A stretch of DNA of 39,168 nt from Malassezia furfur. Its lineage: Eukaryota. Below the pieces are notes generated by a model. It saw only the letters and a program-made list of their open reading frames with translations, was not told the DNA's origin and did no database searches. The stretch's first letter is position 1, and every line of letters begins with the position of its first letter. The translations under genes and the position numbers were made by a program. The stretch lies in assembly GCA_052055015.1 (NCBI GenBank), contig JBQJIT010000057.1; one strand, given 5' to 3'. This document shows positions 659 through 39,168 of the stretch, piece after piece.

Positions 659-718
659 CGCGGCGGTCGCCAACCCCCGTCGCGCCCGGCGTCTGCATGT
701 ACATAATTCCTCTACATC

Positions 719-3442: not shown

Positions 3443-3718
3443 GTCCTATCGTGAGCGATGAAACGTACCCTCTCCCACTTTGGCTCGTAAAGGGCGGGAG
3501 CAACAGCCACTCGCTCAACCATCGTAGGTCGGTGACAAGCCCAACGATGCGCGCCAGCGTGAATCACGTTCAGGGACCCAGACAACCAGCTTGCTTCGAT
3601 TGGATCGGCTGCGCCCCACAAATTCCACGCGCAAGTGGGGCTGGGGCGACCACCGACAGAGGGGTGATTAGTCAGAGTGCATCACCTTACACGGCGCCGC
3701 CGCGGCACTACGTCGCTT

Positions 3719-4657: not shown

Positions 4658-4931
4658 CGTGATCGATAGTCAGGAACTAGCACATTGGAACAGCTCACTC
4701 CGTTAAAACAATAAACAATTGGCTGTTAGCAACGGTCCTGGTGCTTAGAGTACGGCTGCGTGGGGTGCACAGGCCAAAACTTGCAATGCAGCGCCTTGCG
4801 TACCCCACACGCCGAGAGTGCCCTGGACACGCCCTCATTGGTCCTCCATACGCGCACGCGCGGGGCTGGGGACGCACTTATGAGGGATTAGTCATCGTCG
4901 TACGACGTGCTACAGAACTAGGAACCGTAGG

Positions 4932-5870
4932 TTACAGCCGGTAAGAGGCATCAACCTTGTCCATCAAACGCATGTACGCGGAGTACTCCATCGTACCAAA
5001 TTCATGGCCGCTGAACGTCTTTGCTGTCTCAAAAGTGCGTTGCACGGCCTCAGGAGTAGACAAGTGCAGCCCACCACCAAATTGCGCAGAGGCCTGCGCC
5101 GTAGCTTGCAGCTTCGAGGAACAGATAAGCATGTACATACGGTACCATGCCCCACCGATCGTTTCGCCCGTCGTAATCACACCATGGTTCCGTAGAAGCA
5201 AAACGTTGCTGTCGCCAAGGTCACGCACTAGCGATGCCTGTTCTTTCTCATCCACCACAATGCCATCAAAGTTGTGATAGCCCGGCTGGCCTACCGTCGC
5301 CGCTGTCTGAGACATTGTCGTCAAGTAGCCATCTTGTGTGCATGCAAGCCCTGATGCGACAGGGTGATGGCAGTGCAGCACAGCGTTCGTTGATTCGCGA
5401 CCACTGTTGTGGATCGCCGAGTGGATCACAAACCCGGCACGGTTGACCTTGAAAATGTCTCCCACCACTCCCGGGTGCCGCAGCTTACCATGCGAGTCAA
5501 TCTTCAGCAAGGAGCTCGCCGTGATCTCGTCATAACGCAGGCCAAATGGATTGATGAGGAACGACTTAGAGCCATCGGGCTCCTTAACGCTCACGGTCAA
5601 ATGGTTGATCACATCTTCGTTCCATCCAAAGTAGCCAAACAGGCGGTAACAGGCAGCCAGCTCAATACGCGCTTTTTGCTCTTCCACTGGGAACTCGCCC
5701 AAGATGGAGTGGGACAATCGTTCTTGAATCCGGCTGCTGCTCATCTCTTCCACGGCCGTGTACGTGCTCGGCGAGAACAAATTAGTTTGCTGCCGCAGGG
5801 CCGTCGTGCTAAGGTTGCGGACAGCACCTGCCATGCCGCGGGAAGCGAGAGGGCGCGCAAGTGAAAGCAT
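4932..5870 (-). CDS. Class II aldolase/adducin-head family protein, copy B (tandem paralog)
   Basis: Same length (312 aa) and motifs as copy A, offset by 1213 nt. Confidence 0.85.
   Translation of the reverse strand: MLSLARPLASRGMAGAVRNLSTTALRQQTNLFSPSTYTAVEEMSSSRIQERLSHSILGEFPVEEQKARIELAACYRLFGYFGWNEDVINHLTVSVKEPDGSKSFLINPFGLRYDEITASSLLKIDSHGKLRHPGVVGDIFKVNRAGFVIHSAIHNSGRESTNAVLHCHHPVASGLACTQDGYLTTMSQTAATVGQPGYHNFDGIVVDEKEQASLVRDLGDSNVLLLRNHGVITTGETIGGAWYRMYMLICSSKLQATAQASAQFGGGLHLSTPEAVQRTFETAKTFSGHEFGTMEYSAYMRLMDKVDASYRL
5407..5738. repeat. 332-bp near-identical direct repeat, partner at 4194-4525
   Basis: Manual alignment as for 4194-4525. Confidence 0.9.
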
Positions 5871-6942
5871 AGTGAAGAGGAAAGGAATTCAGTGTGGGTT
5901 CAATGCACGCCTCGTTGGGGCTTATAAGCATTTGACAGATGTGATAACGGCCTTGATACTCTTCATGCGGCTGTGAATGGCAAGGGTTGTTCGGGCAAAA
6001 AGCCGCATTGCTCGCGGGCTAAATTGACGCATCAAATTACCTCGTCAACCCTACTTGCGCCCTGGATGGCCCTGAGCATGCTCATTGGTCCTTCATGTGA
6101 CTTAGGTAAGCGAGAAACGGAGTTCAGCGGCCCCACGCGGACCATAGCGGACCAGCTCAGGAACACAAGGTACACCCGGACGTAATCGCATATACGGACA
6201 GAAACGGCTCACTCGTTTCGCGAAGTTGCATATTATGACTGAGTGAAAAGTAGCGATGAAAATTTCAGCCGAACATGCATGATGTGACAGAATAGACTAG
6301 TCAGAATGGTGGAACGATATTCACACCACTGTGCAAGCAATCCGCGTGACGCCGCCTATTACTTGCCCACCACCAATGTAGCTTGGCTCTGTCGCTACAT
6401 TTTTGACTTATACTTGCATTTTGAGGGGACATGCACACATAAGAGCAGTTGGATAATGGGAATAGTTGCACTGGTCTTTGGTATCTCTGATGGGATTGCA
6501 CGGCATCACTAAAAATGAAACCCGGTTTATGCCAGCAACGAGTGTGGTAGCTACTGGTATAAGGACGTAAAGAACTTTTATGTCAAAAGATTGATTCCGT
6601 AAAGTTTGCCTTGCAATCCTAGAGAGGAAAAATGGCGTTATCGGTAAGAAACTCTAGGATGCACCAATCTCCAATTCTCGTGCTATTAAGCGGGTCAGAT
6701 CATCTTGTCTTACAAAATAGTACCATAGACCAATTGATTTAATGATATAAACCGCGAACTAAAGTACAAATTTGCATGCAGCCATCTACAGATATTGTAT
6801 CATATCTTGAGTGTTAAACCCACCACATGCCATTTCTTGCTAGACATAAAATAAGCAGAAGATCTCAAAATAAACTTGGCTAAAATTGAAGTGGTCGCTA
6901 AGCTGATTGCTTTGAGCAGCCTAGTCAAAACCCATGTGGCTG

Positions 6943-20840: not shown

Positions 20841-22772
20841 TTATTTCGTAACACTAAACACACTAAAAGTACCGTGATTTGCATGCGCCACAGTACCATC
20901 TTCAGAGATAGACAGCTGTTTCTTCGACCCTTCTTCCGTGACCGTATGGCCTTTGCCGTTTCCTAGATCGGTGATCTTGAATACCGCAGCTTTCTTCGAG
21001 TTCTTCGTTAGCTTTAAGCTGGACGTAATGTATCGTGGGTGTCTGCCTGGGCTCGCAATTTTGAAGCGGTTGTCGCGCGGTTCAGAGCCTTGCCAATGAA
21101 CGACAAAGAGTTGATCATCGTGGTTGTGCTTTGGATGGGCTTTACTGGTGCCTAGGCGATCGGAAGAGTGACTCAATGCATGTCCGTGGGCTTCGAAGGT
21201 GAGATAGCGACCCTCGCTCAAATCTCCACGAACTGGCTTATAACCGGATTCGACCCGAAGTGCCTCTTCTTCGCTTTGCTTTCCATAAGGCACCTTTGGC
21301 TGCACCTTGTCTCTAAACCGGAGCTGGCAGACCCATGCGCCGTTGTATTGACCTGTAATAGGATCCTTGGAGGCCTCTGGAACTTGTTCAAGGCCAATGG
21401 TGCTGTAATCGGGGTTCGAGAAATCGAACGCCTTCACTAGGTTGCTCATGTGTTTCCTTCTCCAAGGGTTCATCTGCTGTGTCTTCCAAGGTTTTCCATG
21501 TGCTTTAGACCATTCCTCCAAAAAGAGGATTTGGCTTTCATGGGACGAATGTTCTGTGAAAACACCGCCGTTGCGGGTCCACGGAGAAATAATATAGAAC
21601 GGAAGTCGGAATCCTGGGCCTGTTGGCGTCAATCCAATCGACTTGTTGTAAGGATCAACCATCCACTCTCCTTTTGCATCTTGCGGAGGAAGCGGAGCAA
21701 TGACATGATCTGCCCAGCCTCCGGTCTCGTCGAAAGATACAATCAGAGCTGTGCTGTTCCAGTTCTTCCCGTGCATGACAGCTTCGGCAACTTTTCGCTG
21801 GAGCCATGCACCATCTCGTGGCGTATATGGCGGGTGCTCCGAAAGATCTTGCGGCGCAACGATGTAAGATATATCTGGTAAGTTCCCCTCCCTTGCATCC
21901 TTGTAGAAGCGCGCAAGTCCGGGGAATCCAACACTTCGTGCAGCGAAATCTTCGCGGCGTTTGGCAGCCTCTTGATATTGTGACCACTCCACTAACGTGT
22001 CATCGCCGAAGTTGTCGAAGTCTTGGTAAACTTGGAAGCTTATGCCTGATTCGTTAAGGTACTCAGGAACAGTTTTCCATGTCAGTGGTCGACATGAGAA
22101 CGGTGTACCATCGTCAGCCTTCAAACACTTTGGGTCCGAGTTGTTGTCAATCACTGGACCACCTTTATTCTTGGTGTCACCATTCGTTGCTGTTCCGTTC
22201 ACGTTAATGGTGCCGGAAAACCAAGACACTCTGTTTGGGTCCGTTGAAGATATAATAGACTCATAGTAGGCATCACCAACAGTAAAATTCCCAGCTAGAC
22301 CAAATTGAATGGGGATGTCTTCGCGACGGAAATAGCCAATGGAATAGGGAGTATTGGCTATAGCCCATTGATCGACCTCACCCTTGTTCCATGCCGCGTG
22401 ATTTTCGCGCCAGTCATTAGTTCCAGCAACCATGCACTGCGTGCGCTGGCTCCAATCACCGCCTTGCCAGTTCAAATGCCAAGGCATGAGCTCAGAGATA
22501 TCTTTAGGGGGCGTATCATCTTCAATTGTCTGATCGACCGGCTGATGAAATATACTCTTCCCTGTGTTCTTTGAAATATGCACGTTCGGATCTTGGAAAC
22601 CTCGTACGCCTTCCATTGTACCAAAGTAGTGATCAAAGGCGCGGTTCTCCTGCATGAAAAGGACAATATGCTTGATGTCCTGCAAGCCATGATGGTTCAT
22701 GTTGGCCGCAGCTACAGCTGTACAAAGCCCCACAAAACCAAACACAGCACACCATGCTGTTGTAATCAACAT
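20841..22772 (-). CDS. Secreted phospholipase C (phosphoesterase family, PlcN/PlcH-like)
   Basis: Signal peptide; IKHIVLFMQENRAFDHYFGTM.GVRGF, TDPNR, SEHP, DETGGWADHV, GPGFRLP..IISPW..GG. Confidence 0.93.
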   Translation of the reverse strand: MLITTAWCAVFGFVGLCTAVAAANMNHHGLQDIKHIVLFMQENRAFDHYFGTMEGVRGFQDPNVHISKNTGKSIFHQPVDQTIEDDTPPKDISELMPWHLNWQGGDWSQRTQCMVAGTNDWRENHAAWNKGEVDQWAIANTPYSIGYFRREDIPIQFGLAGNFTVGDAYYESIISSTDPNRVSWFSGTINVNGTATNGDTKNKGGPVIDNNSDPKCLKADDGTPFSCRPLTWKTVPEYLNESGISFQVYQDFDNFGDDTLVEWSQYQEAAKRREDFAARSVGFPGLARFYKDAREGNLPDISYIVAPQDLSEHPPYTPRDGAWLQRKVAEAVMHGKNWNSTALIVSFDETGGWADHVIAPLPPQDAKGEWMVDPYNKSIGLTPTGPGFRLPFYIISPWTRNGGVFTEHSSHESQILFLEEWSKAHGKPWKTQQMNPWRRKHMSNLVKAFDFSNPDYSTIGLEQVPEASKDPITGQYNGAWVCQLRFRDKVQPKVPYGKQSEEEALRVESGYKPVRGDLSEGRYLTFEAHGHALSHSSDRLGTSKAHPKHNHDDQLFVVHWQGSEPRDNRFKIASPGRHPRYITSSLKLTKNSKKAAVFKITDLGNGKGHTVTEEGSKKQLSISEDGTVAHANHGTFSVFSVTK

Positions 22773-22885
22773 GATTGTACAGCAATGGCTAACCTGGCAG
22801 GTCGATACTGCTCCCGCAAGACAGAGGTAACCCTCAGATTATATATCATTGCAAGATTGGGACGGTGTTATGCTGCAGGAGTTGA

Positions 22886-22891
22886 CACGTG
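22886..22891. promoter_or_regulatory. CACGTG E-box (Pho4-type) upstream of the PLC gene
   Basis: Exact CACGTG about 114 nt upstream of the ATG at 22772. Confidence 0.45.
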
Positions 22892-23185
22892 CGAATAAAC
22901 GATGCGGGGCAAGTCAACTTTACGGCGCGTGATAAATTCGAACACTCGGATTGGCTGGTCAGAGGCGAATCTCTCAGATGTCCGAGTTATGCAGACCTGC
23001 CAACTATAGTCGAGAACCAGAATGCCCAACCGTTGACTTTCATGGATTCTCGGTATGTTTGCAGCACTGGGCGAAAATATTACGTATGGTTCATTGTTAT
23101 GAATTGATCTAATTGATGGCCTAAGACCCGAACTGCTTCGGTCCAGTAGCTGCTGTAGGAGTGTCAAGGACTGATCAAATCCGCC

Positions 23186-25255
23186 CTAAGGAATACTACA
23201 TACTGGAGGTACTGGAGGAGCTGCCTGAAGTAATTCGGGCTGCTCTGCGATAGCCATAGCCATCCCACTCTCAAGGTGCACCAGCATATGACAATGAAAT
23301 GGCCACACACCAGGATTGTCGGCTACCCAACGAATGACAGCATAGCCCATCATTGGTATAACAAATGTATCACGCTTCATTTTATGCCTTAAGTCGTAAT
23401 TTTGTCCGCGATCAACAAAGTCATTGTAACCGCCCCAAACTGGGTCAATCTCGCCTGTCTCCATGACCCAAAATTTATGCCCATGTAGATGGAAGGGGTG
23501 TTCAGAATCATCATGATTGTTGATCACAAGCTCAATAACAACGGGCCTTTTAGGATGGGGCGACACCACCAATTCATGATCATGGTCAATTAGTTCAGCG
23601 TTTAACCATGAAGTTGGGTCGGAAGAATTTGCGTGTGAAATACGATGCAGCAAAGGCGGGCGTGGCACTTTACCGCTTCCACCGGCCCGCCATGTAGTAT
23701 GGTTCATGTAGCTCATTGGTACAATTCCATACTTTTCACGAGTTTGGACTGTTATCAGGACAGTCTCACGTATGTCGCCCCGTCCAAAATCTAGCACAGG
23801 GGCAGGGTCAGGAATCAGTGGAGTTAAGTCTTTGGTATCAATGTCATGGCAAGGTTCATTAGGGATCTTGGGATCTTTCACATTATCACCCCACGCGTGA
23901 GATGATGGTAGCTTGCTTTGAAATAAACGCCTCTGTAGCTGAGAAGACGCATATTGAGCAATTTCTTGGCGACCCTTTATGGCCCGCCGAAGAGGTGAAA
24001 GCCAGCTTCCCTTCGGTCCCGAGACTTGGTATCCCACAATAGCCTTTGTGACCAAATTCAAAACAGGGTTCATATATTGAAAACATTCGGCAGACATTTG
24101 TGACCGCATCCATACTAGACCCTGGTCGTCGAGGCGGTTAAGAAGCACAGAATATCGCTGACCTGTTGCGATTGGAAGCCGATGTACAGTGAATGGATCA
24201 ACCAGGACACCATCTGCCTCAATGACTGTCAAGGAATGACCATCAATCGAAAACGTCTGTTCGGCGAGAGAACCAACGTTGACTAGACGTAGCCGATAAC
24301 GCTTACCAGGATCCAAAGAAAATGTAGAATAATCACCGACAACATCCTTTCCCAATAGGTCTGCTGGGCAAGGCACTTGTGTGAGACGGCTATGCTCGCA
24401 GTCGAAGCGGTGCCTTCCGTTTATCAGACCACTGGCAGGTACGGGCTCGGCCTTCTGCATCCATCGTGAAACATAACGTGCCAAAACCACGGGCCCTTGC
24501 TCATGAAAATGATCCCCTAAAGCAATCGCGACATCTTCGTCCCAAGCAAGGAGCTCGGTTACATTTGTGCTGTACTTTTGTAAAAGCTTTGCTTCGTTGT
24601 GTCGAGAATGAACGATCAGCATTCCCCAGAGCCCATCTGCTCGCGACGTCCCGATATGTGAATGATACCAATGGGTCCCCACATCTTCTGGGTGTAGGGT
24701 AAATCGATAAGTAAACATTTCGCCTGGGTGGAGTATACATGAAGAGAACCCAGCTGCTCCATCCATTTCTTGTGTGCCCCGCATGGAAAGACCATGCCAA
24801 TGCATCGCAACATTCCTCTCAGTACCCCCTCGAAACACAGAGTCAATTTGTGATGACATGGGAGGACTAGGAAGGGTTTCATTGTCGAAAATGGCATTCC
24901 ATACTCGAATTACGAGTGTGTCACCTTCATTTGCTTCAATCAGAGGTCCGGGAAAAAGACCATTGATGGTGTACATGAGGCGGGGGATTCCATCAGGTGC
25001 TCGCATATCTCTGGATATTGTCCAGTTGTAATGGCGCTCTTTGGGAGGAACTCTGGTGGAAAAATTAGGGTCCATTGCAATAGGACCTTCGCTGACCGGA
25101 GATTCCAACCAGCGGCTGGAGACTAGAGGGAACGCATGTTTTCCGAGAAAATATTGATGTTGCGCATCAGAGACGATCCACCACACAACTGCCAGAAGAC
25201 CTGTTATCACAAATGCTGCCGCAAAAACCCAGGGGACAAACAAATGGCGATTCAT
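23186..25255 (-). CDS. Multicopper oxidase (laccase-like) with N-terminal signal-anchor
   Basis: HWHG, WYHSH, HPFHLHGH, HCHMLVHLESGM (Met axial ligand); ATG at 25255. Confidence 0.93.
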   Translation of the reverse strand: MNRHLFVPWVFAAAFVITGLLAVVWWIVSDAQHQYFLGKHAFPLVSSRWLESPVSEGPIAMDPNFSTRVPPKERHYNWTISRDMRAPDGIPRLMYTINGLFPGPLIEANEGDTLVIRVWNAIFDNETLPSPPMSSQIDSVFRGGTERNVAMHWHGLSMRGTQEMDGAAGFSSCILHPGEMFTYRFTLHPEDVGTHWYHSHIGTSRADGLWGMLIVHSRHNEAKLLQKYSTNVTELLAWDEDVAIALGDHFHEQGPVVLARYVSRWMQKAEPVPASGLINGRHRFDCEHSRLTQVPCPADLLGKDVVGDYSTFSLDPGKRYRLRLVNVGSLAEQTFSIDGHSLTVIEADGVLVDPFTVHRLPIATGQRYSVLLNRLDDQGLVWMRSQMSAECFQYMNPVLNLVTKAIVGYQVSGPKGSWLSPLRRAIKGRQEIAQYASSQLQRRLFQSKLPSSHAWGDNVKDPKIPNEPCHDIDTKDLTPLIPDPAPVLDFGRGDIRETVLITVQTREKYGIVPMSYMNHTTWRAGGSGKVPRPPLLHRISHANSSDPTSWLNAELIDHDHELVVSPHPKRPVVIELVINNHDDSEHPFHLHGHKFWVMETGEIDPVWGGYNDFVDRGQNYDLRHKMKRDTFVIPMMGYAVIRWVADNPGVWPFHCHMLVHLESGMAMAIAEQPELLQAAPPVPPVCSIP

Positions 25256-25345
25256 CAAGGCAAAACACGCCCACTAGAGATGTTCGCCTGTAACTGATTT
25301 GAACCATACATTCGCGGCAACAAACACACTTATTGGTCATTGGGG

Positions 25346-25413
25346 CACGTGCGCACTTTAAAATCTGGTGTCCGTGCGCCGGAGAGTACGCCGAGTTCGG
25401 AATGTCTTCCGAA
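25346..25413. promoter_or_regulatory. Divergent promoter elements: CACGTG (25346-25351) and inverted repeat TTCGGAA-TGTC-TTCCGAA (25396-25413, CGG-N8-CCG)
   Basis: Seen directly in the 208-nt spacer between the MCO and the PhnY-like gene. Confidence 0.55.
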
Positions 25414-25463
25414 ACTCTTCCGATCAGGCACGTCTCCTCTAAGGGATAAAAGCAACTACAGTC

Positions 25464-26363
25464 ATGGCCTCGGAACAGCAATTACCAATCTCCAAAGCAA
25501 TGTCTGAAACCCTTCTTAAACCTTACAGCCTCTCCGAAGAGCAGTTGGCCTCGTTCGACCGCAACGGTTTCTTGATTCTTCGTGATCTCTTTGACGAGTC
25601 GACCACCAAAGAGATCCAGCAGTGGTCCCAGAATGTACACGATTGGCCTTATGAGCCAGGAAAGTGGATGCCATATGAAGAGCAGCGCGAGGATGGCACT
25701 CGTGTCCTTTGTCGCACGGAAAACTTCGCCGACTTCCACGATGGCTTTGACAAGCTTTTCCGCGGTCAGCGCCTGCTGAGTGTCCTTGAGCAGATTAACA
25801 AGGAGCCGATGGTTCTTTTCAAGGAGAAGATTAATTATAAACACCCTGGTGCAGGGGGATTTGACGCTCACACTGATGCACCAGCCTACCAACATGCTGG
25901 TGTGCTGAGACATCTTACTATCAATTTGGCTATTGACGCTGCGACATCCGAAAACAGCTGTCTTGAGGTTGTCCCTGGGAGCCATAAGATGGATGTACCC
26001 ATTGGTGATGACAACTGCATCAAGCATGAGTGGGAAACCCAGCACGAATGGGTGCCTGTCCATCTTAAGCCAGGGGACACGCTCATTTTCGGCTCGTTCC
26101 TTGCGCACCGAAGCGGCTCGAACAAGTCTAAGAACCGCCGAGCTGCACTTTATGCAACATTCAACGCCTATTCGGATGGTGGTGATTGTCACAAGGCGTA
26201 TTATATTAAGCGTCGTAAGGAATGGCCTCCGACGGCTGAGCGTGTGAAAGACCAAGACTACTCTTACGGTGCGAAGCAATACGGTTTCGGGTCCCCTATG
26301 TGGGGTGCAACTGACCTCAGTCGGCTTCAAACTCAGCGCCTTGGACAAACAGGTACAGCGTGA
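25464..26363 (+). CDS. phnY: PhnY-like 2-aminoethylphosphonate dioxygenase (PhyH family, Fe(II)/2OG)
   Basis: HxD...H triad (AHTDAPAY, LAHRS) and 2OG-binding Arg (RRA). Blocks W...PGKWM.Y.E....G.R.LCR.ENF.D.H, VLFKEKIN.K.PG..GF, PP.AER....DYS closely match bacterial PhnY as I recall it. Confidence 0.85.
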   Translation: MASEQQLPISKAMSETLLKPYSLSEEQLASFDRNGFLILRDLFDESTTKEIQQWSQNVHDWPYEPGKWMPYEEQREDGTRVLCRTENFADFHDGFDKLFRGQRLLSVLEQINKEPMVLFKEKINYKHPGAGGFDAHTDAPAYQHAGVLRHLTINLAIDAATSENSCLEVVPGSHKMDVPIGDDNCIKHEWETQHEWVPVHLKPGDTLIFGSFLAHRSGSNKSKNRRAALYATFNAYSDGGDCHKAYYIKRRKEWPPTAERVKDQDYSYGAKQYGFGSPMWGATDLSRLQTQRLGQTGTA

Positions 26364-26405
26364 AAACAGTTTTTAATTTTCGTTCCAATAGAATACAAAT
26401 GAAGT

Positions 26406-28845
26406 TTAAGGACTCATTGCTGCAGTAAACATAGATGACAAGTCAGACACTTCAACGCCTGCTCCCAGCGTAGTATCTTCAAAAAGGTCAATTCCCGACA
26501 AAGGAATTTGTCCGGAAAGAAGGTCAAAGCTCTCTAAAGAGTTGATTCCGCCTACCTCTTCTTGGCGGAATTGTTGTTGCTCTAGGTTTGAGGCGTCAAA
26601 GGCGTTCACATTAATAGGCGATGCACGCACAGGTGGAGTCCAAGTAGGAAAATGTTGTGTTTGAATAGCGTGGGGTGTCTTAGGACGAGAGGTAGGACCA
26701 AATGAAGATTGCTTTTGGGATTGTTCCATCTTCGATTGGTATTGAGGAGTAGAAAAATAAGGCTCGCGATGTATAGATGTATAGGCAGCACGAATTTGTT
26801 CAATAGATTGTTTTGCCCCAGCAATGATGTTGACTAACATGTTTTCTTTTGCAACGCACTGAGCACCCGTGACGAGTGCTCTTAGAGCAGGATCAACGCT
26901 GCGCAAAACAGAGCGCAAATCTGCTCCACGTAAATGATGAGAATTTTCTTCATTCCCAAATTGCCTGAGTGCCTTAACGAGTAGAACAATCGCAAATGTT
27001 GTCATTGTGTGTGAATAGGAGGTGCTTCCAATAAGGACACTTAAATGAGCCACATCCGCTGCTAGAACCTCCAATATACGGTGCGCTGATTCGACGGCAT
27101 TTTCTGCAATGACGCGCCGGCGGTCTGCTTGAAAGCAAGCATGGTTTACTGAAGAATTTGATTCGCCCATCATTTCCTTCATTACCTGTGCAGAAAAGAA
27201 CACAGGCAACGCATTTCTGTCAGTTCGGAACGCCATGGAGTGTAGGAAAAGTTCAGCATACAGTCGCTGCCGGTTAATATCATTCTTTTCAAAAATATCA
27301 ACAACGGAGAATTCTCGTGACCAAGTTTGATACCATGCCTCAATTTGGCCTTGAAACCGGGCATGAAATGCGAGCCCCAATTCGTCCAAAGATGCATGAA
27401 GATCGGAGCCAATTTCACCGATAGCGTCGTGCAAGATCTCCCACATCTTGACCAAGGCGACTAGACGAGTATCGCTTCGATTTTCTGCCCATGTACAGTT
27501 GTTAAGCCATTCAACTGCTCGACGAATTACCTCATGTTGCCGAGTCATTGGTGGCCTCCGGTAAGGAATTGAGCTCTGATGATCTGCAATGTAGATCAAA
27601 TAGTATAACCGGGCCTCCTCGTAGGCGATGCGCAAGGGAGAATCAGTTTTGTTTGGTGAATGTCCCGCAGTATCTGATACACTGCGACCAGACGGAAGAG
27701 ATTGATCTTGACGTTTCCCTCGCAAAAGAGGGGCGCTTGGAACCCAATGAGCATAGCTCTCATGCATGTGTCTTTCTGTCACGATGCGTACGGCAGTTCC
27801 CACTAGGGTCCAGCTCACATCGTTCAGCCAAAATGAACCAATAACAAGTGCACGAATGTCATCGAGTGTCTGATGTCGACTGAAAGCTTGAATGGCTGCC
27901 AATCGAATAAATTCGCGGTAAAGAGATGGAAAGAGATGATGGTTGTTCGACGTTTGTTTCATGTGCAAGGCAGAAACACATAAAATTGAAACGAAGAGGA
28001 GCTTAGATGAGCTACGCATCTTCTCAATTGCCAAAAGAATCATGCGACGTAGGGGAGAATTTGCTGAACCTTCATATGAATCCACTTTCTCTGGCAAGTC
28101 TTGTATGCCATGTATGGTTCCGATCAGATGACAAATATGAGGGTCAAGGATCCGGAAGTAGAGATAAAACAATTCAACAGCCTCATCCAAAGTGATGAAA
28201 CCTTGTTGAAGGACGTCGCCGCGTATTGAAGATGACATGAGACCTGGAGACTCGCTACGCTCTGGCGAATCGAGAATATTGGATTCTGCAAGTGAGTCCC
28301 CCTTGTTCATATCGCTACCCGGTCGCAGTGCAGGTATGATATTGTGCCCATGCCGGGATGAAGGTATTTGATCTGTTGCTGTCCATTGCCCAGCCAGCCC
28401 CAAAAGCCCTTCGGATGCTAGCTCTGAATCATCTGCGGCATTTTGTTGGTTTGTTGCTTGCACGGCTGGACGTTTCCGAGGGGGTTCTTGGTGTACCGTC
28501 TGCTGCCTTACGAGTTGGGACAATGTCGTAGACACTTGGTCCAAGGAAAATCGAAGCGCCTGCATCTCTTTTTCCATGTCTGTGCGCCAATCATTTTGTT
28601 CGTCAAGTAAACTTTGAAGGTCCTTCTTGCGCCGCACGCATTCTATACCCTTTTGAGTGCAGCGACGGCAAGCCTCGTCCTTTTCGAGCATATCACATCT
28701 TAGCTGGGTGAATTATACTTAGTAGACGTACCTTGTGTTTTCTGCACGGATCACACGCTGTCACTTTGCGACTCACTACGAGTGACGGGCCACCGGCTTC
28801 AGCTCCGGTCTCCATCGCGGAACGTGCGATACTGCCTCGGGCCAT
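26406..28845 (-). CDS. Zn(II)2Cys6 fungal transcription factor; exons 28845-28732 and 28703-26406
   Basis: Splicing the 28-nt intron 28704-28731 (GTACGT..CAG) rebuilds ACDPCRKHKLRCDMLEKDEACRRCTQKGIEC, followed by a coiled coil and middle homology region (ARLYYLIYIADHQSSIPYRRPP). Start may be 28845 or 28815. Confidence 0.9.
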
Positions 28846-28943
28846 TCCCGAGACAAGTACCTCGTGAGATCTTGCATGCGAACATGTGCTAATCTTTAGC
28901 CAATAGATAACGAGTTTAAAAAATTTAGCACTCTTATCCTACG

Positions 28944-28949
28944 CACGTT
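28944..28949. promoter_or_regulatory. CACGTT (lower-affinity Pho4-type box) in the TF/transporter divergent promoter
   Basis: Seen directly about 90 nt upstream of the transporter ATG; a second copy (AACGTG) lies at 28821-28826. Confidence 0.35.
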
Positions 28950-29038
28950 CCAGAATGCAAGACAGAATTGAAATGCTGTAATGAACTCAAGCTATGGTTA
29001 TTTAATAGGCTTTGGCAAAGGGCCAAGCTATCACCAAC

Positions 29039-30595
29039 ATGGCTTCCCAGCTTGATGAATGGCAAGAAGACACCTGTGTGCCTAATAATCCCAAATCCGT
29101 GGACAGACCAGCTCGTGCCGGGGTGGATAAACTCAATGTTAGCTCAGTACTAATGGTTGTTTGGTCGGGCATTGCTCTGGCGTCAGATGGCTACAATTCC
29201 CAAGCACTTGGCTCTGTCAATGCAATCTTCAAGAAACTTTACGGAGATGAGTACTCTGGGGAAATGCAGGGCCGCGTCTCCAGCGCGTATTATGTTGGTC
29301 TCTGTTTGGGCTCCTTCGCCTTTGGTTTGCTCATCGACCGTTTCTCAAGAAAGACTGGAGTTGTTTTTGCAACTGCCCTAATGATTATTGGTGTTGCACT
29401 GTGCACCGGATCTTATGGACCCAGTCCTCACATGATGTTTTGGATGCTTACTGTGTCACGCGGCATTCTCGGGTTTGGTGCAGGCGGTGAATATCCTGTA
29501 TGTAGTACAGGTTCCACCGAAGCTGGTGACGAGACAAGTGCCGTTCGCAAGCATCGCGGCCTCATTGTCGGTCTAGTTGGATGCACTGCAGTTGACTTTG
29601 GCATCGTCTTTGGCGGCCTTTTTCCTCTTTGCATTCTGGCTGGTTTTGGATATAACAGCTCGACCCCGGCCGACCAGACTATGCATTTGAAAGCAGCATG
29701 GCGTGTTACTCTAGGACCGGAATGCATTATCCCTGCCACTGTATTCTTTTTCCGCTACAAGATGGCAAGCAGTACGGCGTTCAAAAACCATTCCATGACG
29801 AAAAGGATAAGCTTGAAGGTGTATATGCTTGTGGTGAAACGATACTGGCGTCAGATTATCGGTACTTGTTTGACCTGGTTTCTTTATGACTTCGTTGCTT
29901 ACCCGTTTGGTCTTTTCACACCTAACATCATTGACGGACTTCCGGGCAACAGCAAAAATCTCATTGTCTCGATTGGCTACAGTGCGCTGATCAACACGTT
30001 CAATATCCCAGGATGCATTCTTGGCTCGTTTTCTCTGGACAAAATGGGGCGCCGCAATACAATGCTTCTCGGATTTGTATCGCAAAGCATTATTGCCTTT
30101 GTCCTCGCAGGTGCTTTGGCTCCGATCCAGAAAGTATTCCCGCTCTTCATTATTCTCTATGGAATTATGCTGAGCTGTGGCGAGTTTGGGCCGGGTGTGA
30201 CTACTTTGCTGGTGAGCAGTGAATGCTTTCCAACCGCTTTCCGTGGGCATTTTGTTGGTCTCGCTGCGTCTGTGGCTAAGGCAGGTGCGGCGGTTGGCAC
30301 AGTGGTCTTCAACCGAATTCTTGCTCACTATGCAACGCCTGAGGAAGACACAACTACGCAAGGTCTTCGTGTGGCAGTTTTCGTTGGTGCTAGTCTTTCC
30401 CTCCTTGGCGCATTGGTCACCTATTTATGCATTCCTGGTGATCACGATCGCAATTTGCAAAATGAAGATATTCGCTTCCGTCAGTTCTTGATGTTGAACG
30501 GTATCTCTGGTGATACATTTGACGAGCCCAACGTTCTCCGCGTGGGCTCATTCAATGACTTCATGGATGACGACAAGCCCAAAATTGAAGCGTAA
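29039..30595 (+). CDS. Git1-like MFS transporter (phosphate:H+ symporter / glycerophosphodiester permease family)
   Basis: SGIALASDGY, DRFSRK.G, RGILGFGAGGEYP, WFLYDFVAYPFG, GEFGPG, ECFPTAFRG...G.AA..AKAGAAVG; ATG at 29039. Confidence 0.85.
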   Translation: MASQLDEWQEDTCVPNNPKSVDRPARAGVDKLNVSSVLMVVWSGIALASDGYNSQALGSVNAIFKKLYGDEYSGEMQGRVSSAYYVGLCLGSFAFGLLIDRFSRKTGVVFATALMIIGVALCTGSYGPSPHMMFWMLTVSRGILGFGAGGEYPVCSTGSTEAGDETSAVRKHRGLIVGLVGCTAVDFGIVFGGLFPLCILAGFGYNSSTPADQTMHLKAAWRVTLGPECIIPATVFFFRYKMASSTAFKNHSMTKRISLKVYMLVVKRYWRQIIGTCLTWFLYDFVAYPFGLFTPNIIDGLPGNSKNLIVSIGYSALINTFNIPGCILGSFSLDKMGRRNTMLLGFVSQSIIAFVLAGALAPIQKVFPLFIILYGIMLSCGEFGPGVTTLLVSSECFPTAFRGHFVGLAASVAKAGAAVGTVVFNRILAHYATPEEDTTTQGLRVAVFVGASLSLLGALVTYLCIPGDHDRNLQNEDIRFRQFLMLNGISGDTFDEPNVLRVGSFNDFMDDDKPKIEA

Positions 30596-30948
30596 ATCCT
30601 TTTTTTCACGCAAGACGATAAATTTGCGATGTTCATATAGCTGGTTTGGATTAACTGGCAGGGTATACAGGGAGAAAGTTCAGTAAAGAGTATGAGCATG
30701 AATCGATTACGCTCGTTAACCATTCAACAAAGATGGATTAACACTGCTTATACAATGTCATCGCTCGAATAATAAAAATAAAGAAAAAATGAAAAAGAAG
30801 TAGCCTCATCTTTTCTCTTCGTTATAATCCATGTCAGTAATAGCACCAAGTGAGAATCGTATATCAACCCCGGCCTCTTCATGGTGCGACAATTGCTAGA
30901 TTAGATACATTAGCAAAATAAATAAAATCAGCTTGGGGCCGTGGCGCA

Positions 30949-31003
30949 CACGTGTGTCTCGGACATGTCTCCTGTACCACGTGCCCATCGGCTATGATTC
31001 CGA
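30949..31003. promoter_or_regulatory. PhnZ promoter elements: two CACGTG boxes (30949-30954, 30978-30983) and TCGG-CTATGA-TTCCGA (30988-31003, CGG-N8-CCG)
   Basis: Seen directly within about 130 nt of the ATG. Confidence 0.55.
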
Positions 31004-31079
31004 GATAAATACGCACGGATCGCGGGCTTACCTTAAATACAAGAAGTTAATGACGCACGGCTTCCTCTACACAATTATA

Positions 31080-31744
31080 ATGGTAGAACCTCTGGCGACG
31101 ATGACAAGTCATACACCTGAAGCGCATGTTGCCCATATTTTTCAACTTCTTGAGGATCAAGGAAGAGGCGACTATCTCGGCGAGTCTATTTCACAACTTG
31201 AACATTGCCTACAAGCGGCCTACTTTGCCGAGCAGGAGGTCGACGACGAAGATGTAATTATCGCAGCCCTTTTTCATGACATTGGACAATTTCTTCCTAT
31301 GTCAGAGATTCAAAATTGCAAGGCCGGAGGGCCCATGATCGATGAGAAAATGGGTGCTAACGTTGGCCGTCACGGTCACGACGTCATTGGGCAGCGCTGG
31401 CTGCTTATACATGGGTGGCCTGAGAAGGTGGCAAGCTTGGTTGGTGCTCATGTGACATCAAAACGGTATGTGTACTTTAAAGACTAACTAGCAGTTTCCT
31501 AACGGCAACTCGACCTGACTATCTGGCTTCTTTGTCCGGTGCCTCGCAAGCATCACTCCGAATGCAGGGAGGCCCATTCACCCCCGAAGAAGTGGAAAAA
31601 TTCTTGAGAAACCCTGATCATGAGGAAATGGTGAGGCTAAGACTATGGGATGACCGGGCCAAAATTGTAGGACTGAAAACTCCGCCATTGCAACACTATC
31701 AGCCAATGGCAGAGCGTGTGCTTCGTCGTTCACTGGCAGTTTAG
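31080..31744 (+). CDS. phnZ: PhnZ-like HD-domain diiron oxygenase (C-P bond cleavage); exons 31080-31465 and 31495-31744
   Basis: YLGE.ISQLEH.LQAA, AALFHDIG, H..IG, HV.SKR, LS.AS..SL..QGG, LRLWDDRAK. The 29-nt intron 31466-31494 (GTATGT..CTAAC..CAG) joins two ORF-track pieces as ...SKRFLTATRPDYLASLSGASQASL. Start may be 31080 or 31101. Confidence 0.88.
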
Positions 31745-34374: not shown

Positions 34375-35172
34375 CTAAGCGGTTTTGGTTGCGATGATGT
34401 TGCCATGGGGTACCATGTACCAGCCATTGGGAGCACCTTTCCAACGGCCAAATGCCGCCGAAATCTCCTGCATGTGTTCTTCCGAGGCGCCGTGTTCCTT
34501 GGCTTGCTTGTAGATGTTTCCGGTCAGAATGCGTTTTTCCCACATTCCGCCCCAGTAGTTCCGGGATTCGGGCGTCGCAAAGCACCATGCAAATGCGCCA
34601 GGTTCGATTTGTGTAAAACCTGCCTGCTGTGCCCAGTCTAGCAGCCTGCGCCCGGCGTCTGGCTCGCCGCCGTTCGAACGAGCAATCTTCAGGTACAGAT
34701 CCCTCCATTCGTCCAGCTTTGGGTCGCTTGGGTACCACGTGTAAGCAGAGTAGTCACTGTCGCGCGCAGCGACAATGCCGCCCGGCTTGACTACGCGCCT
34801 CAGCTCTTTCAAGGCCTGAACAGGGTCACCGACATGTTGAAGTACTTGGTGAGCATGTACTACATCAAAGGTATTATCAGCAAAGGGCAACGCGTGAATA
34901 TCACCGACGCTGTATTCTAACTGCACTCCACGACGCTCAGCCTCAGCCCGCGTGACACCAATCGCCTCCTTATCCATCTCAAGGGCGGTGACTTTGCCCA
35001 CGAGAGGCACAAAGTCGCATGTTATGGTGCCGGCGCCCGAACCCACGTCGAGCAAGTGCTGCTCTTTCTTCAAGTAAGGAAGCAAGTACTCGGCAGAGTT
35101 CTGAGCGGTGCGCCACTGGTGGCTAGCGAGGACAGAACTGTTGTATCCATGCGTGTAACGGGCCTGCGTCAT
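34375..35172 (-). CDS. Class I SAM-dependent methyltransferase (UbiE/Methyltransf_11-31 type), copy 1
   Basis: YTHG...VL.SH.WRTA.NSA.YLLP, LLDVGSGAG, GDIHALPF.DNTFDVVHAHQVLQH, RRVVKPGG; ATG at 35172. Confidence 0.88.
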   Translation of the reverse strand: MTQARYTHGYNSSVLASHQWRTAQNSAEYLLPYLKKEQHLLDVGSGAGTITCDFVPLVGKVTALEMDKEAIGVTRAEAERRGVQLEYSVGDIHALPFADNTFDVVHAHQVLQHVGDPVQALKELRRVVKPGGIVAARDSDYSAYTWYPSDPKLDEWRDLYLKIARSNGGEPDAGRRLLDWAQQAGFTQIEPGAFAWCFATPESRNYWGGMWEKRILTGNIYKQAKEHGASEEHMQEISAAFGRWKGAPNGWYMVPHGNIIATKTA

Positions 35173-35309
35173 TTTTGCCAGAAGTTGAGAGGGGCCGGCG
35201 CAAGTTAGCCTGCTTATATAACTTTCTATGTGTGGCGGTGCATGACTCCTGCCGTACATCGCGAAGTGGGTGTGGAGGCCGGCTCCTTTGGGGCCGGCTC
35301 TGGGTCAAG

Positions 35310-36149
35310 TCACTTGCGCGCGAGAATGTGCGAATGCGGGACCATGAACCAGCCGCACGGAGTGTCTTTCCACGTAGCCCAGGCCTGTGAAATGCGCTGA
35401 AGCTCCTCCTCGGTTACCCCTCGCGACCGTGCCTGATCAGCAAAATCGGAGTGCACGATGCGCTTTTCCCACGAGCCGCCCCAGTGTTCCCGGGTCTCGG
35501 GTGTCGCGAAGCACCATGTATAGATCCCGGGTGTGATATCGGTAAACCCTGCCTGCAATGCCCAGTCGAGTAGCATGGCACCTGCGTTAGGCTCTCCACC
35601 ATTCGACCGAACCGTATCAATGTACAGTTTCTTCCACGACTCGAGTCCCTCGCTGGTAGGGTACCCCGTAAATGCGGAATAGATGCTTTCGCGACACGCC
35701 ACAATCCCACCTGGCTTAAGGACACGGTGCATTTCCTTCATCGCTTCGACTTGTTTGCCCACATGCTGCAAAACTTGGTGCACATGGACTACATCGAACG
35801 TGTTATCCGAGAAGGGTAAGCGGTGGATGTCGCCCAAGGCATAGTCCATCGACACGTTCTGCCGCTGGGCTTCCTTGCGCGTCACATCAAGGGCCTCGTC
35901 GCTCACCTCCAGCGCGGTCACACGATGAACCAACCCAACAAAGCCGACAGTGATCGTACCCGCGCCTGACCCGATGTCCAGCAAGTGCTGCTCTTGATTG
36001 AGTAAGGGCAACAGGTGCCCCGCGGAATTGTATACGGTACGCCCGCGGTGGTTCGCTAGCACGGCATCACCGTAGCCGTGTGTATAACGAGAACCGGCCA
36101 TAGTCGAGAGTGCGCGGACCATCCCGTGCGTGAAACGTGCGCTGGTCAT
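35310..36149 (-). CDS. Class I SAM-dependent methyltransferase, copy 2 (tandem paralog); starts at 36149 or 36101
   Basis: Collinear with copy 1 (LLDIGSGAG, FDVVHVHQVLQH, NGGEP.AG, W.MVPH). Confidence 0.88.
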   Translation of the reverse strand: MTSARFTHGMVRALSTMAGSRYTHGYGDAVLANHRGRTVYNSAGHLLPLLNQEQHLLDIGSGAGTITVGFVGLVHRVTALEVSDEALDVTRKEAQRQNVSMDYALGDIHRLPFSDNTFDVVHVHQVLQHVGKQVEAMKEMHRVLKPGGIVACRESIYSAFTGYPTSEGLESWKKLYIDTVRSNGGEPNAGAMLLDWALQAGFTDITPGIYTWCFATPETREHWGGSWEKRIVHSDFADQARSRGVTEEELQRISQAWATWKDTPCGWFMVPHSHILARK

Positions 36150-36223
36150 GGTGGGGTGGGCACGGGCCAGGCTGTCTCCCTCCACGTCGGAAATATGGGT
36201 ACAATTTGTACTACAGTGGAGCA

Positions 36224-37760
36224 TCAATACGGGTATCGGTAAGAGGGCCGCTCCTTGTCGGTGAGGTCGGACAGGTCTACGTCGAGTTGCCCGTCCTGGT
36301 CGAATTTGTCCGCGAACAATGCTTGTCTGTCACGTCGCCGATTCCACGTAAAATGCACAGCGGTAAGGCACATCACAAAGCCGGCTGACACGGCAAACAT
36401 TACGAAGTCGACCGTCTTGGCGACGGTGTATTGTGGCGCGTCTTTGCTCTGGTACACCTGGGGACCAATTATGTTTCCCACGCAGTAGGCGATCTGGAGT
36501 ACCGCATTGAAGATGATTCGCTTTGTGGTGCCGGACACTGCGCCGCTCATCCAGCTGTAAAACATAGGGTAAGAAACCGGGAAAAAATAGAGCAGAGTTA
36601 AGCCGGCCATGCGCGACACTGACTGGCTTGCATCCAGCACGGTCATCATGACGCCACCGGCGATGGCGACGGCGTAGCCAAACAGACACGGCACGTCGCG
36701 CCGGCCGAGCCACAGGAATAACGCAGTGCCGAGCACCACAGCTACGACCTCGCCGGCGCCTTGGCACATGCCGAGCAACGCCGCCTTGGGGTTAGAGAAG
36801 TGGAAGGCTGTGATGATTTGGGACGCAAAAATGCTAATCCCACCATTGGTGATGTTCACAGTGCAGAATGCAAGGAAGAAAATGTACAGTCGAATATCGG
36901 TCAGAGCCTCGATCACCTGGTACTTTTTGATGCGGGTGTCGTGGATACCTGATTTGTTGGAGGCGACCCGCAGGATGGCGACGCCACGCTCGCGCTCGGT
37001 AAGATATTTGGTCGTCTCTGGGGAGGAAGGCATAATGAAGCTGGGTTAAGGCAGAAACGTACAAGCATAGGATCCCAAACGACACGGTGACAACGCCGAC
37101 GCCGACGAACATTTCTTGCCAGCGGTTGAGCGTCGGCGCGGGATGGATGAGGATGCCGTAGGTCATCGCGCCGCCCACGATCATAGCCCAGCCGTTCATC
37201 GAGTACCAGATGGCCACGCGGATCACCTGCTCTTTGCGCGTGTAAAAACGGCCAGTCAGGAGGATGAAGCCTGGATTGATCGCTGCCTCAAAAAAGCCCA
37301 GGAAAAAGCGCACGGCAAGGAAGGCGCCATAGTTGAGCGCCGCCGCATGACATGCAAGCACCACGCCCCATACAATCACTACCAGCGAGATGTAAGGACT
37401 GAGGGTAAATTTTTGCAGGGCGATGGCATGAAGCGGCGTGCCAGCAAGGTAGCCGAAGTAGAAAATGCTGCCGAGCCACGAATATTCCTGTTTTTCGAGG
37501 CCAAGATCTGCGCGAAAATTCATCAAGTTCGCATAGTTGATGAGTGTTTTGTCGAGCATCTGGAGCAGCACGCACCCGCTCGCGAGCGGAAGAAGCAGCC
37601 AGTCGAGCTTGTGGAGTACATGCTGGCGCTCGGCCTCGCTGATGTCCTCTTCGGGCACGAGCCCGGCAACGCCCGTATGCATGGCATGGTGCTCCATTTC
37701 CTGCGAAATGTCCAACACGTGGACGGAGGCCTTGTCGCGGTCCTCGGCGGTCGAAGACAT
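36224..37760 (-). CDS. Allantoate permease-like MFS transporter (ACS/Dal5 family), copy 2; exons 37760-37063 and 37040-36224
   Basis: Paralog of 32466-34042; removing the 22-nt intron gives GILCFFIMPSSPETT, matching GILCFFVMPTSPDTT in copy 1. Confidence 0.88.
37041..37062 (-). other. 22-nt spliceosomal intron
   Basis: GTACGTTTCTGCCTTAACCCAG: donor GTACGT, branch TTAAC, acceptor CAG; boundaries fixed by gap-free alignment to the paralog. Confidence 0.85.
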
Positions 37761-37892
37761 GGTGTCGAGACGCGTATCGAGGCGCGCCTGATAAGGTGTG
37801 GAGTGCTATCCCCTGGGGCGCTGGATCGACCCCCGCGCCTATCTCGCAGCCCCACCTCCACCTACCTGGTCCGTGCGCAGCACGTCGTGCGG

Positions 37893-39168
37893 CTACTTGG
37901 GGTTGCTATGGAAGCCCAGCACGCCAGGCAGGTCGCGCGCTCGGAGCTCGGCGCGGTGTACGCGCGAGTCACCGGTAAACAGGCGACGTGCCTCGTAGGC
38001 CTGTACACTGGCGTCACGTGTGCCGACAGTGATGTGCGCTGTGCGCTGCCGCCGGCGCAGCACGTCTTCGGTCACGTCGGGCAATGCATCGGAGTGCATG
38101 CGGTCGATCTCGAGCGCCATCACATCATCGTTCCAGCAGAGCGCCGCGACATGCAGCGTAAACGCGGGCCGGTCGGCCGCATTACGGATCGCGATCGGGT
38201 ACAGCTGGTCCCACAGCGCGGCTGCCTCGGCTTCCTGGTCGCTGCGATGCACGAGCGTGACGTGCTGCCGGTTCATAACGCGCCCGTTGGCCCGCATCGC
38301 CTCGATCAGCGGCATAGCCTGTGCGCGAACCTCTTCGGGCAGCATCGCGAGCTGCTGCAGCACAAAGTCGAGCACGTGCACGTGGACAAACACACCAATG
38401 TACGATGTGGGATGCACCTTGGTGGGATCCTCGCGCGCGACGTCTGGCAGCGCCTTTTTCGTCGTCGGCGCATATGTGCGCGCGGCCTCGAGCGCATGTG
38501 CTCGCTCTGCCTCGCTTGGCATCGGGAGCGCGAGCAGTGGGCACAGTACCTCGAGGACATGCTGGAGCGCCGCGTCGAGCGATGCGTCCAGCTCCATCCA
38601 GACGGCATCGGAGAACTGGTCGTCGGATGCGCCGACGGTACCCTCGCCGCTGGTCTGCGCCTGGAAGCTCTGGATTTCCTTGAGGAAGCGCGTGAGGATA
38701 GCGTCGTACTGGAACGGCGCGGTGCGGTCCTCGACGCGCAAACACTGGTGCCGATCGCCGCGGTCGACGATGCGCGCAGCGCACACGTGCTGAACGGCGG
38801 CGTGCGACAGGCCGTCCAGGCGCCACGCCAGCGCCACGAGGCGCACGCGCGGGCCTGGCTGTCCGTTCTTTTGGGGGCCACTCACGCGGCGCACCAAATC
38901 GACGATCTCGTCGCGGTGCTTGCGCAGGTGGTTGTTGCGGTCGGCGATCACCACGTCGTGCGTGTCAAGCGCCTTTTGCACATTGCTCAGGAAAGCAGGG
39001 CCCGTGCGTTTCGTCGTGACGTCGTCGCTCTGTACATGCGCCCACCCAAACAGCTGCGCGAGTGCCACGCCCAGCGCCGTCTTTCCGCAGCCAGGAACGG
39101 CGATCGGCACAATGAGCGTCTTGGCAAAGGGGCGGTCGTCGGCGCGCAGGTCGCGCGCGGGGCCGCCA
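37893..39168 (-). CDS. TRL1: Fungal tRNA ligase, kinase and cyclic phosphodiesterase domains (5' part outside the window)
   Basis: P-loop PIAVPGCGKT...FGWAHVQSDD, VIADRNNH, two 2H motifs HVTL and HITVGT. Confidence 0.92.
   Translation of the reverse strand, partial: GGPARDLRADDRPFAKTLIVPIAVPGCGKTALGVALAQLFGWAHVQSDDVTTKRTGPAFLSNVQKALDTHDVVIADRNNHLRKHRDEIVDLVRRVSGPQKNGQPGPRVRLVALAWRLDGLSHAAVQHVCAARIVDRGDRHQCLRVEDRTAPFQYDAILTRFLKEIQSFQAQTSGEGTVGASDDQFSDAVWMELDASLDAALQHVLEVLCPLLALPMPSEAERAHALEAARTYAPTTKKALPDVAREDPTKVHPTSYIGVFVHVHVLDFVLQQLAMLPEEVRAQAMPLIEAMRANGRVMNRQHVTLVHRSDQEAEAAALWDQLYPIAIRNAADRPAFTLHVAALCWNDDVMALEIDRMHSDALPDVTEDVLRRRQRTAHITVGTRDASVQAYEARRLFTGDSRVHRAELRARDLPGVLGFHSNPK

Follow-up and report, generated by a model that had tools for sequence, protein, structure and literature searches.

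How does a fungus control the genes with which it breaks carbon–phosphorus (C–P) bonds? Bacterial phosphonate breakdown has been studied thoroughly; on the fungal side of the pathway, the reviews consulted (PMC10574752, in part) present only the enzymology of PhoF, a fused PhnY–PhnZ enzyme. In the literature searched, we found no account of the regulation of fungal phosphonate catabolism. The question is raised by a 39,168-bp stretch of Malassezia furfur DNA (contig JBQJIT010000057.1; hereafter the window, to which all motif counts and coordinates refer), in which genes for a PhnY*-like dioxygenase (phnY) and a PhnZ-like oxygenase (phnZ) lie in one cluster with genes for a Zn2Cys6 regulator and an MFS transporter. 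An earlier note on this DNA had drawn attention to a palindromic element shared by the two oxygenase promoters and had read it as the binding site of the cluster regulator. From the sequence, we put at even chances the proposal that two TCGG-N8-CCGA elements are recognition sites of the cluster-encoded Zn2Cys6 regulator; for a third element, TCGG-N7-CCGA, the assignment is less certain.

Direct reading of the sequence and pattern matching both identified inverted CGG triplets in all three elements, with a spacing of eight bases (N8) in sites 1 and 2 and of seven (N7) in the third (Table 1). All three motifs were read exactly where the earlier note had placed them, and the sequence at 25396-25413 bears out its description of site 1 as a perfect 7-bp inverted repeat. 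The form TCGG-N6-TTCCGA occurred at exactly two places in the window, sites 1 and 2. The centre of site 1 is located 59.5 bp before ATG 25464 and 95.5 bp before ATG 25500 of phnY, and 149.5 bp before ATG 25255 of the divergent multicopper oxidase gene; site 1 sits in the 208-bp bidirectional promoter (25256-25463) of these two genes. The centre of site 2 is located 54.5 bp before ATG 31050 and 84.5 bp before ATG 31080 of phnZ, so that the first-ATG distances of the two N8 sites are nearly equal. The N7 element is centred 29 bp before ATG 28815 of the regulator and 195 bp before ATG 29039 of the transporter. A further CGG-N8-CCG, CGGAGAGTACGCCG, lies next to site 1, and the two possibly constitute a tandem site.

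The window counts of TCGG-N7/8-CCGA are unremarkable by themselves; it is their placement that stands out. TCGG-N8-CCGA occurred twice against a shuffle mean of 0.57 (at least two copies in 9 of 100 shuffles), and TCGG-N7-CCGA once against 0.52 expected (at least one in 40 of 100). All three copies, however, fall inside the three intergenic regions of the cluster (25256-25463, 28816-29038, and 30700-31079), which together make up 811 bp or 2.1% of the window. We simulated 4000 random pairs of 250-bp regions with a first-order Markov model fitted to the lower-GC core of the window and scored spacings (x) of 0–15. Some CGG-Nx-CCG spacing was shared by 89 of these pairs, and a TCGG-Nx-CCGA by none (0/4000). 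When no prior was placed on arm sequence, an equal-spacing inverted repeat with 4-bp arms was common to 262 of 3000 random pairs, and a pair repeat accompanied by a third region at ±1 spacing was found in 6 of 3000 random triples; TCGG-N8 was the sole repeat in the real data with that full pattern, arms of any sequence being allowed. The element that the earlier note described as shared by both oxygenase promoters is thus real and non-randomly placed. That two short CG-rich palindromes stand in two promoters by chance is, in our estimate, very improbable. Such a coincidence is favoured by the definition of the motif after the data had been looked at, by the shuffles with two N8 copies, and by the ease with which random promoter pairs share some 4-bp-arm repeat; it is opposed by the outcome for TCGG-Nx-CCGA pairs and for triples and by the similar ATG distances of both N8 sites.

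Inverted CGG repeats are the classic site of Zn2Cys6 proteins, and the cluster encodes one. The spliced N-terminus of the regulator, in which a 28-nt intron is removed, carries the six-cysteine signature CX2CX6CX9CX2CX6C; a Fungal_trans domain was also detected (PF04082, E = 4.6e-7), and homologues carry PF00172. The zinc-cluster protein called in the earlier note is therefore a genuine Zn2Cys6 protein. A heptad-patterned run of hydrophobic residues spaced by 3–4 follows the last cysteine, and a single-sequence monomer model of a 100-residue N-terminal fragment showed one helix over residues 2–71, with block means of the predicted local distance difference test of 89–99 over residues 11–70. 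The modelled helix is compatible with a dimerisation coil, a monomer model saying nothing about dimerisation itself. Searching with residues 1–420 yielded a family of 18 homologues at E<=1e-8, none of which has a functional name.

The regulator is linked to PhnY in other fungi. In five cases the longest contigs carrying regulator and PhnY homologues are equal in size (10552, 98260, 6747, 29789 in Violaceomyces palustris, and 84779), from which we infer that the two genes share a contig. On the ascomycete-like metagenome contig L016, a full-length regulator homologue directly follows PhnY (tblastn E = 3e-40); it has a Zn_clus Pfam match and is alignable to the window regulator along its length, and a Dothideomycete protein is the closest match to the L016 PhnY. 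In loci L001 and L020, PhnY is linked to the transporter gene. Because the regulator is linked to PhnY both in relatives and on L016, a Zn2Cys6 site is the best reading of the palindromes. Many Zn2Cys6 proteins recognise inverted CGG repeats, and the palindromes might instead be functional DNA sites of a different factor, for example a Zn2Cys6 protein encoded elsewhere in the genome. The N8 spacing is indeed already used by another family, ClrB, according to the part of PMC13267753 available. We regard a different factor as improbable, however, given the conserved linkage of the regulator to PhnY and the fact that a Zn2Cys6 regulator encoded in a cluster usually controls that cluster, a role predicted for GliZ in the available part of PMC4006717.

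If the palindromes are sites of the cluster regulator, the protein would dimerise through the helical heptad segment after its zinc cluster, and each zinc cluster would read one CGG triplet in the Gal4-type fashion. From a position about 55–95 bp ahead of the start codons, the bound dimer would activate the PhnY*-like dioxygenase and PhnZ-like oxygenase genes and, through bidirectional and intergenic promoters, probably the MFS gene and perhaps the multicopper oxidase gene. Because the promoter with the phnY site is bidirectional, the multicopper oxidase, whose function relates to iron or copper, may be regulated jointly with the PhnY*-like and PhnZ-like enzymes, both of which are iron-dependent. 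A Pho4/NUC-1-type basic helix-loop-helix (bHLH) factor on GCACGTG/CACGTT boxes would act together with the regulator. The C–P cleavage pathway would thereby answer to phosphate scarcity, a global signal, and to a pathway signal conveyed by the specific regulator.

Several observations, some in the window and others in distant fungal promoters, weigh against this assignment. Bare CGG-N8-CCG is frequent in the window, with 17 copies against 9.6 expected and 13 of them outside the cluster promoters; because it is so common, only the extended TCGG...CCGA form is specific. When k-mers of the three promoters were ranked without bias, TCGGAA came only fifth among the enriched 6-mers, and no k-mer of the ranking survived multiple-test correction. 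Sites 54–60 bp from the first ATGs may lie in the core promoter or the 5′ untranslated region. The N7 element, 29 bp from the regulator ATG, is predicted to be hairpin-like as RNA on that strand, and the E-boxes of the same promoters could alone account for co-regulation; both points are taken up below.

The distant promoters came from a metagenome scan with a PhnY alignment, which kept 80 loci, mostly bacterial-type PhnY–PhnZ pairs with about a dozen fungal-like ones; none exceeded 56% identity. Genome contigs scanned with PhnY or the regulator alignment yielded no relevant match. Eight promoter regions from six independent ascomycete-like loci (4,260 bp) were examined, with the remaining 31,673 bp of the six loci as background. 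The count left out L012 (homologous to L001), L062 (a duplicate of L061), L016 (no phnY upstream DNA), L073 (inconsistent MFS/PhnY overlap), L002 and L003 (compact, operon-like layout), L080 (no motif of any class, gene model unclear), and all lower-identity bacterial-type loci. Counting TCGG-Nx-CCGA over all 80 loci gave no information, as the base composition of the GC-rich bacterial loci by itself produces many copies. In the distant promoters CGG-N8-CCG was absent (0 vs 1.2 expected), and the recurring spacing was N7, with four CGG-N7-CCG (two in L001, one each in L006 and L020) against 0.67 expected and five in the background; all remaining spacings together gave three. The P value of the N7 excess is roughly 0.005 before correction for 16 spacings. 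The homologous promoters of L001 and L012 keep a TCGG-N7-CCGAGAA in which three of seven spacer bases differ and which resembles the window N7 element (TCGG-GCCATTC-CCGAGA), but these conserved arms carry little weight because the two promoters are 81% identical overall. These data suggest a CGG-N7-CCG site in fungal phnY promoters, in a small sample and at a spacing unlike that of the N8 motif. Compared with L016, Violaceomyces (P0132), and P0131, the window's clade has an additional residue in the linker that follows the last cysteine of the zinc cluster (regulator-family alignment A3, columns ~78-82); any relation between this length difference and the N8 and N7 spacings is speculation. The proposal that the palindromes are the regulator's site is plausible and supported in part: the motifs, their non-random placement, the Zn2Cys6 gene, and its linkage to PhnY all held, and the distant promoters gave four N7 and no N8 copies.

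The same promoters contain E-boxes, and these are absent from the earlier note, whose interpretation is incomplete without them. The lower-GC core has GCACGTG at three places, 22886, 25345, and 30978, all of them in promoters (of the phosphoesterase gene, phnY, and phnZ, respectively), and CACGTT variants precede the phosphate-transporter-like MFS gene. GCACGTG is the CACGTG core with a 5′ G and matches the Neurospora NUC-1 consensus from DNA affinity purification sequencing (PMC12506109, in part); Pho4 contacts CACGTGG (PMC5559640, in part). The k-mers ACGTG, ACGTGC, and CGCACG headed the unbiased ranking and were each present in all three promoters, making E-box-type elements (GCACGTG/ACGTGCG) the top-ranked shared k-mers, and four of the nine window copies of ACGTGCG lie in the four promoters, that of the phosphoesterase gene included. 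CACGTG occurred seven times in the 4,260 bp of distant fungal promoters against ~1.1 expected from a background that is mostly coding sequence. Given the placement of the E-boxes, the CACGTG excess in distant promoters, and the NUC-1 and Pho4 consensus sequences, bHLH-mediated phosphate-starvation control appears well supported, either as companion or as rival to the palindromes.

As a rival, such control by a Pho4/NUC-1-type bHLH factor would be the real shared regulation and the CGG palindromes would be incidental or of minor effect. The k-mer ranking and the E-box positions favour it, and the cluster genes are all plausibly phosphorus-scavenging. It leaves unexplained, however, why a Zn2Cys6 gene is retained in the cluster across phyla and why TCGG-Nx-CCGA is restricted to the cluster intergenic regions. 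CACGTG also lacks overall enrichment in the window (13 vs 11.8 expected) and is read by several bHLH factors, and E-box control is compatible with sites for the regulator. We therefore consider it unlikely that E-boxes replace the palindromes in this role. Two copies of GGAACGTGCG, inverted and ~115 bp apart, flank the N7 palindrome in the 223-bp regulator/transporter intergenic region. The phnY promoter contains one CGCACGG (25371-25378, - strand) and the phnZ promoter two (31011-31018 and 31053-31060); there are also TAAATAC boxes at two positions (31006 and 31033) and one GATAAAAG box (25446). Taken together, these point to additional elements common to the promoters or to boxes of a TATA-like type.

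Three roles are conceivable for the N7 element: control of the transporter from upstream, autoregulation of the regulator, or action as RNA in the regulator leader. As the earlier note had it, a near variant of the site, with the sequence given, lies at the junction of regulator and transporter; its standing as a DNA site is less secure, for it is 29 bp from the ATG and has a strong fold on the sense strand only. The region 28826-28862 on the regulator sense strand (-) folds at -21.3 kcal/mol (z = -5.47), with none of 200 shuffles as stable, against -11.9 kcal/mol on the opposite strand. The palindrome extends into a ~14-bp hairpin with G-U pairs on the minus strand. This hairpin is kept in a 111-nt folding context, ends ~12 nt before ATG 28815, and has AUG 28845, in frame, inside its loop. 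Homologue N-termini, most of which are automatic calls starting inside exon 2, did not settle whether the regulator starts at ATG 28815 or ATG 28845. One might thus suppose that the N7 element, perhaps along with the other two, functions as a 5′ leader hairpin with an in-frame upstream AUG in its loop, modulating translation or start-codon choice. The fold and its position favour this, but the regulator leader may begin downstream of the element, and a GC-rich perfect 6-bp palindrome folds well anyway. Because RNA folding at the phnY and phnZ sites is weak (z = -1.5 and -0.5), the RNA reading cannot explain the shared motif. We judge it quite improbable.

Returning to DNA sites of the cluster regulator, we note that a directly testable model results from three components: the predicted site, the candidate regulator, and phosphate starvation as a likely second input. 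If true, it describes how a skin-yeast-like fungus decides on harvesting phosphorus from C–P compounds. In its most extended form, the model would be the first described eukaryotic phosphonate-catabolism circuit. A Zn2Cys6 activator, linked to PhnY*/PhnZ from ascomycetes to Malassezia-like basidiomycetes, would read TCGG-N8-CCGA, the N7 spacing of ascomycetes tracking a linker one residue shorter. A Pho4/NUC-1-type partner would occupy the adjacent GCACGTG, so that cleavage would proceed only when phosphate is scarce and the pathway signal is present, and a leader hairpin would provide translational control of the regulator. We hold this whole combination to be doubtful, and offer it tentatively.

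Table 1. Coordinates of the palindromes, E-boxes, and genes of the window.
Feature	Position	Strand	Context
Site 1: TTCGGAA-TGTC-TTCCGAA (TCGG-N8-CCGA)	25396..25413		divergent multicopper-oxidase / phnY promoter
Site 2: TCGGCTATGATTCCGA (TCGG-N8-CCGA)	30988..31003		phnZ promoter, 4 bp after E-box
N7 palindrome: CTCGGGCCATTCCCGAG, CTCGGG-CCATT-CCCGAG (TCGG-N7-CCGA)	28836..28852		between regulator and MFS transporter
Extra CGG-N8-CCG: CGGAGAGTACGCCG	25380..25393		4 bp upstream of site 1, without T/A flanks
E-box GCACGTGC (palindromic)	25345..25352		phnY / multicopper-oxidase promoter
E-box GCACGTG	30978..30984	-	phnZ promoter, 4 bp before site 2
Second CACGTG	30949-30954		phnZ promoter
E-box GCACGTG (ACACGTGCG on +)	22886..22892	-	~50 bp upstream of phosphoesterase open reading frame
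GGAACGTGCG (CACGTT-type half E-box)	28819..28828	+	regulator / transporter intergenic region
GGAACGTGCG, inverted copy	28943..28952	-	regulator / transporter intergenic region
PC-PLC / acid-phosphatase-family phosphoesterase (PF04185)	20841..22838	-	has E-box, no palindrome
Multicopper oxidase	23186..25255	-	divergent from phnY; 208-bp promoter in common
PhnY*-like PhyH-family 2-oxoglutarate dioxygenase	25464..26363	+	alternative start 25500
Zn2Cys6 / Fungal_trans regulator, 794 aa	26406..28815	-	exon 1 28815-28732, intron 28731-28704, exon 2 28703-26406
MFS transporter related to phosphate:H+ symporters	29039..30595	+	
PhnZ-like HD-domain oxygenase, 211 aa	31080..31744	+	exon 1 31080-31465, intron 31466-31494, exon 2 31495-31744
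Class II aldolase pair, 80% amino-acid identity	3719-4669 / 4932-5888		tandem paralogues at core border
Methyltransferase pair, 57% amino-acid identity	34375-35304 / 35310-36329		tandem paralogues at core border

Open frames and Pfam matches gave the gene order phosphoesterase, multicopper oxidase, dioxygenase, Fungal_trans protein, MFS transporter, and HD protein. The PhnY*-like dioxygenase matched PF05721 at E = 2.9e-31; its nearest NCBIfam model is a PhnY-type hydroxylase, at 193.5 bits and so below the equivalog cut-off of 500. Its closest named homologue, at 77% identity, is annotated as 2-aminoethylphosphonate dioxygenase in Malassezia yamatoensis, and unnamed relatives reach 92% identity; judged by such homologues, the DNA is that of a Malassezia-like basidiomycete yeast. 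The 29-nt yeast-type intron and 211-aa product of the PhnZ-like gene were defined from fused fungal homologues. The best solved-structure relatives of this protein are PhnZ (4mlm, E = 3.2e-16) and TmpB, and exon 1 alone scored 73.4 bits, below cut-off, with TIGR03276. On this Pfam, solved-structure, NCBIfam, and homologue evidence, the labels that the cluster genes had been given are reasonable, and the phosphoesterase, PhnY*-like, PhnZ-like, and MFS genes are plausibly phosphorus-scavenging. In many basidiomycete and ascomycete homologues (P0021, P0042, P0047, P0048, P0058, and others), PF05721 and PF01966 are fused in one protein; in the five fused homologues examined, the PhyH part precedes the HD part. 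The window encodes the PhyH and HD enzymes in separate genes, 4.7 kb apart.

The cluster is located in a compositionally distinct part of the window. A ~30-kb core (4701-34400) has a GC content of 0.48, against 0.63 and 0.60 in the flanks (1-4700 and 34401-39168). The lower-GC core is dense in genes of catabolism or scavenging, the phosphonate cluster included; among them are a copper amine oxidase, an arginase-family gene, an arylamine N-acetyltransferase, a polysaccharide deacetylase, MFS transporters, a GPR1/FUN34 gene, an aldo-keto reductase, the phosphoesterase, and the multicopper oxidase. Tandem paralogue pairs mark both borders of the core.

Set beside known systems, the regulation proposed for the cluster is of an ordinary fungal kind. 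As with Gal4, Put3, and Ppr1, inverted CGG triplets stand in promoters that are probably co-regulated, and in the window regulator a predicted helical segment with a heptad pattern comes after the six-cysteine cluster. The regulator differs from them in a spacing of N8 (N7 once) and in coming from a small uncharacterised family with predicted sites only. The geometry of the N8 sites is identical to that of ClrB/CLR-2: ClrB binds CGGN8CCG, and loss of either triplet abolishes binding, as stated in the portion of PMC13267753 at hand. The ClrB/CLR-2 regulon, however, consists of plant cell-wall enzymes (cellulase), and no ClrB-named protein was found among the 18 homologues of the window regulator, no direct comparison with ClrB having been made. 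For GliZ, the regulator of the gliotoxin cluster, a cluster-wide TCGGN3CCGA has been predicted in intergenic regions (PMC4006717, seen in part). Both systems thus combine a cluster-encoded Zn2Cys6 protein with TCGG...CCGA in intergenic regions, in each case as a sequence-based prediction, whereas the GliZ spacing is N3 and its cluster makes a secondary metabolite rather than scavenging a nutrient.

Among phosphorus regulators, the likeness to Pho4/NUC-1 lies in the GCACGTG/CACGTG boxes of the window's phosphorus-acquisition promoters (PMC12506109 and PMC5559640, partial texts) and concerns these E-boxes, not the palindrome. In fission yeast, the Zn2Cys6 factor Pho7 drives the regulon of phosphate starvation through the site 5'-TCG(G/C)AxxTTxAA, as given in the accessible part of PMC5559640. 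It resembles the window regulator as a Zn2Cys6 protein over phosphorus-acquisition genes, and its site may likewise begin with TCGG; the Pho7 site described there is asymmetric, however, whereas the window sites are palindromic. By-eye comparison on both strands fitted none of the three window sites to the Pho7 site. Readings of the half-sites as heat-shock elements or Rgt1-type sites, likewise compared with consensus sequences by eye, were set aside. The window shares with the PhnY*/PhnZ oxidative 2-aminoethylphosphonate pathway a PhyH-family dioxygenase and a PhnZ-type HD oxygenase, and of the metagenome loci kept, 30 out of 80 had PhnY and PhnZ genes side by side. Unlike that arrangement and the fused PhoF, the two window genes, candidates for this pathway by sequence, are separate and are split by the regulator and the transporter.

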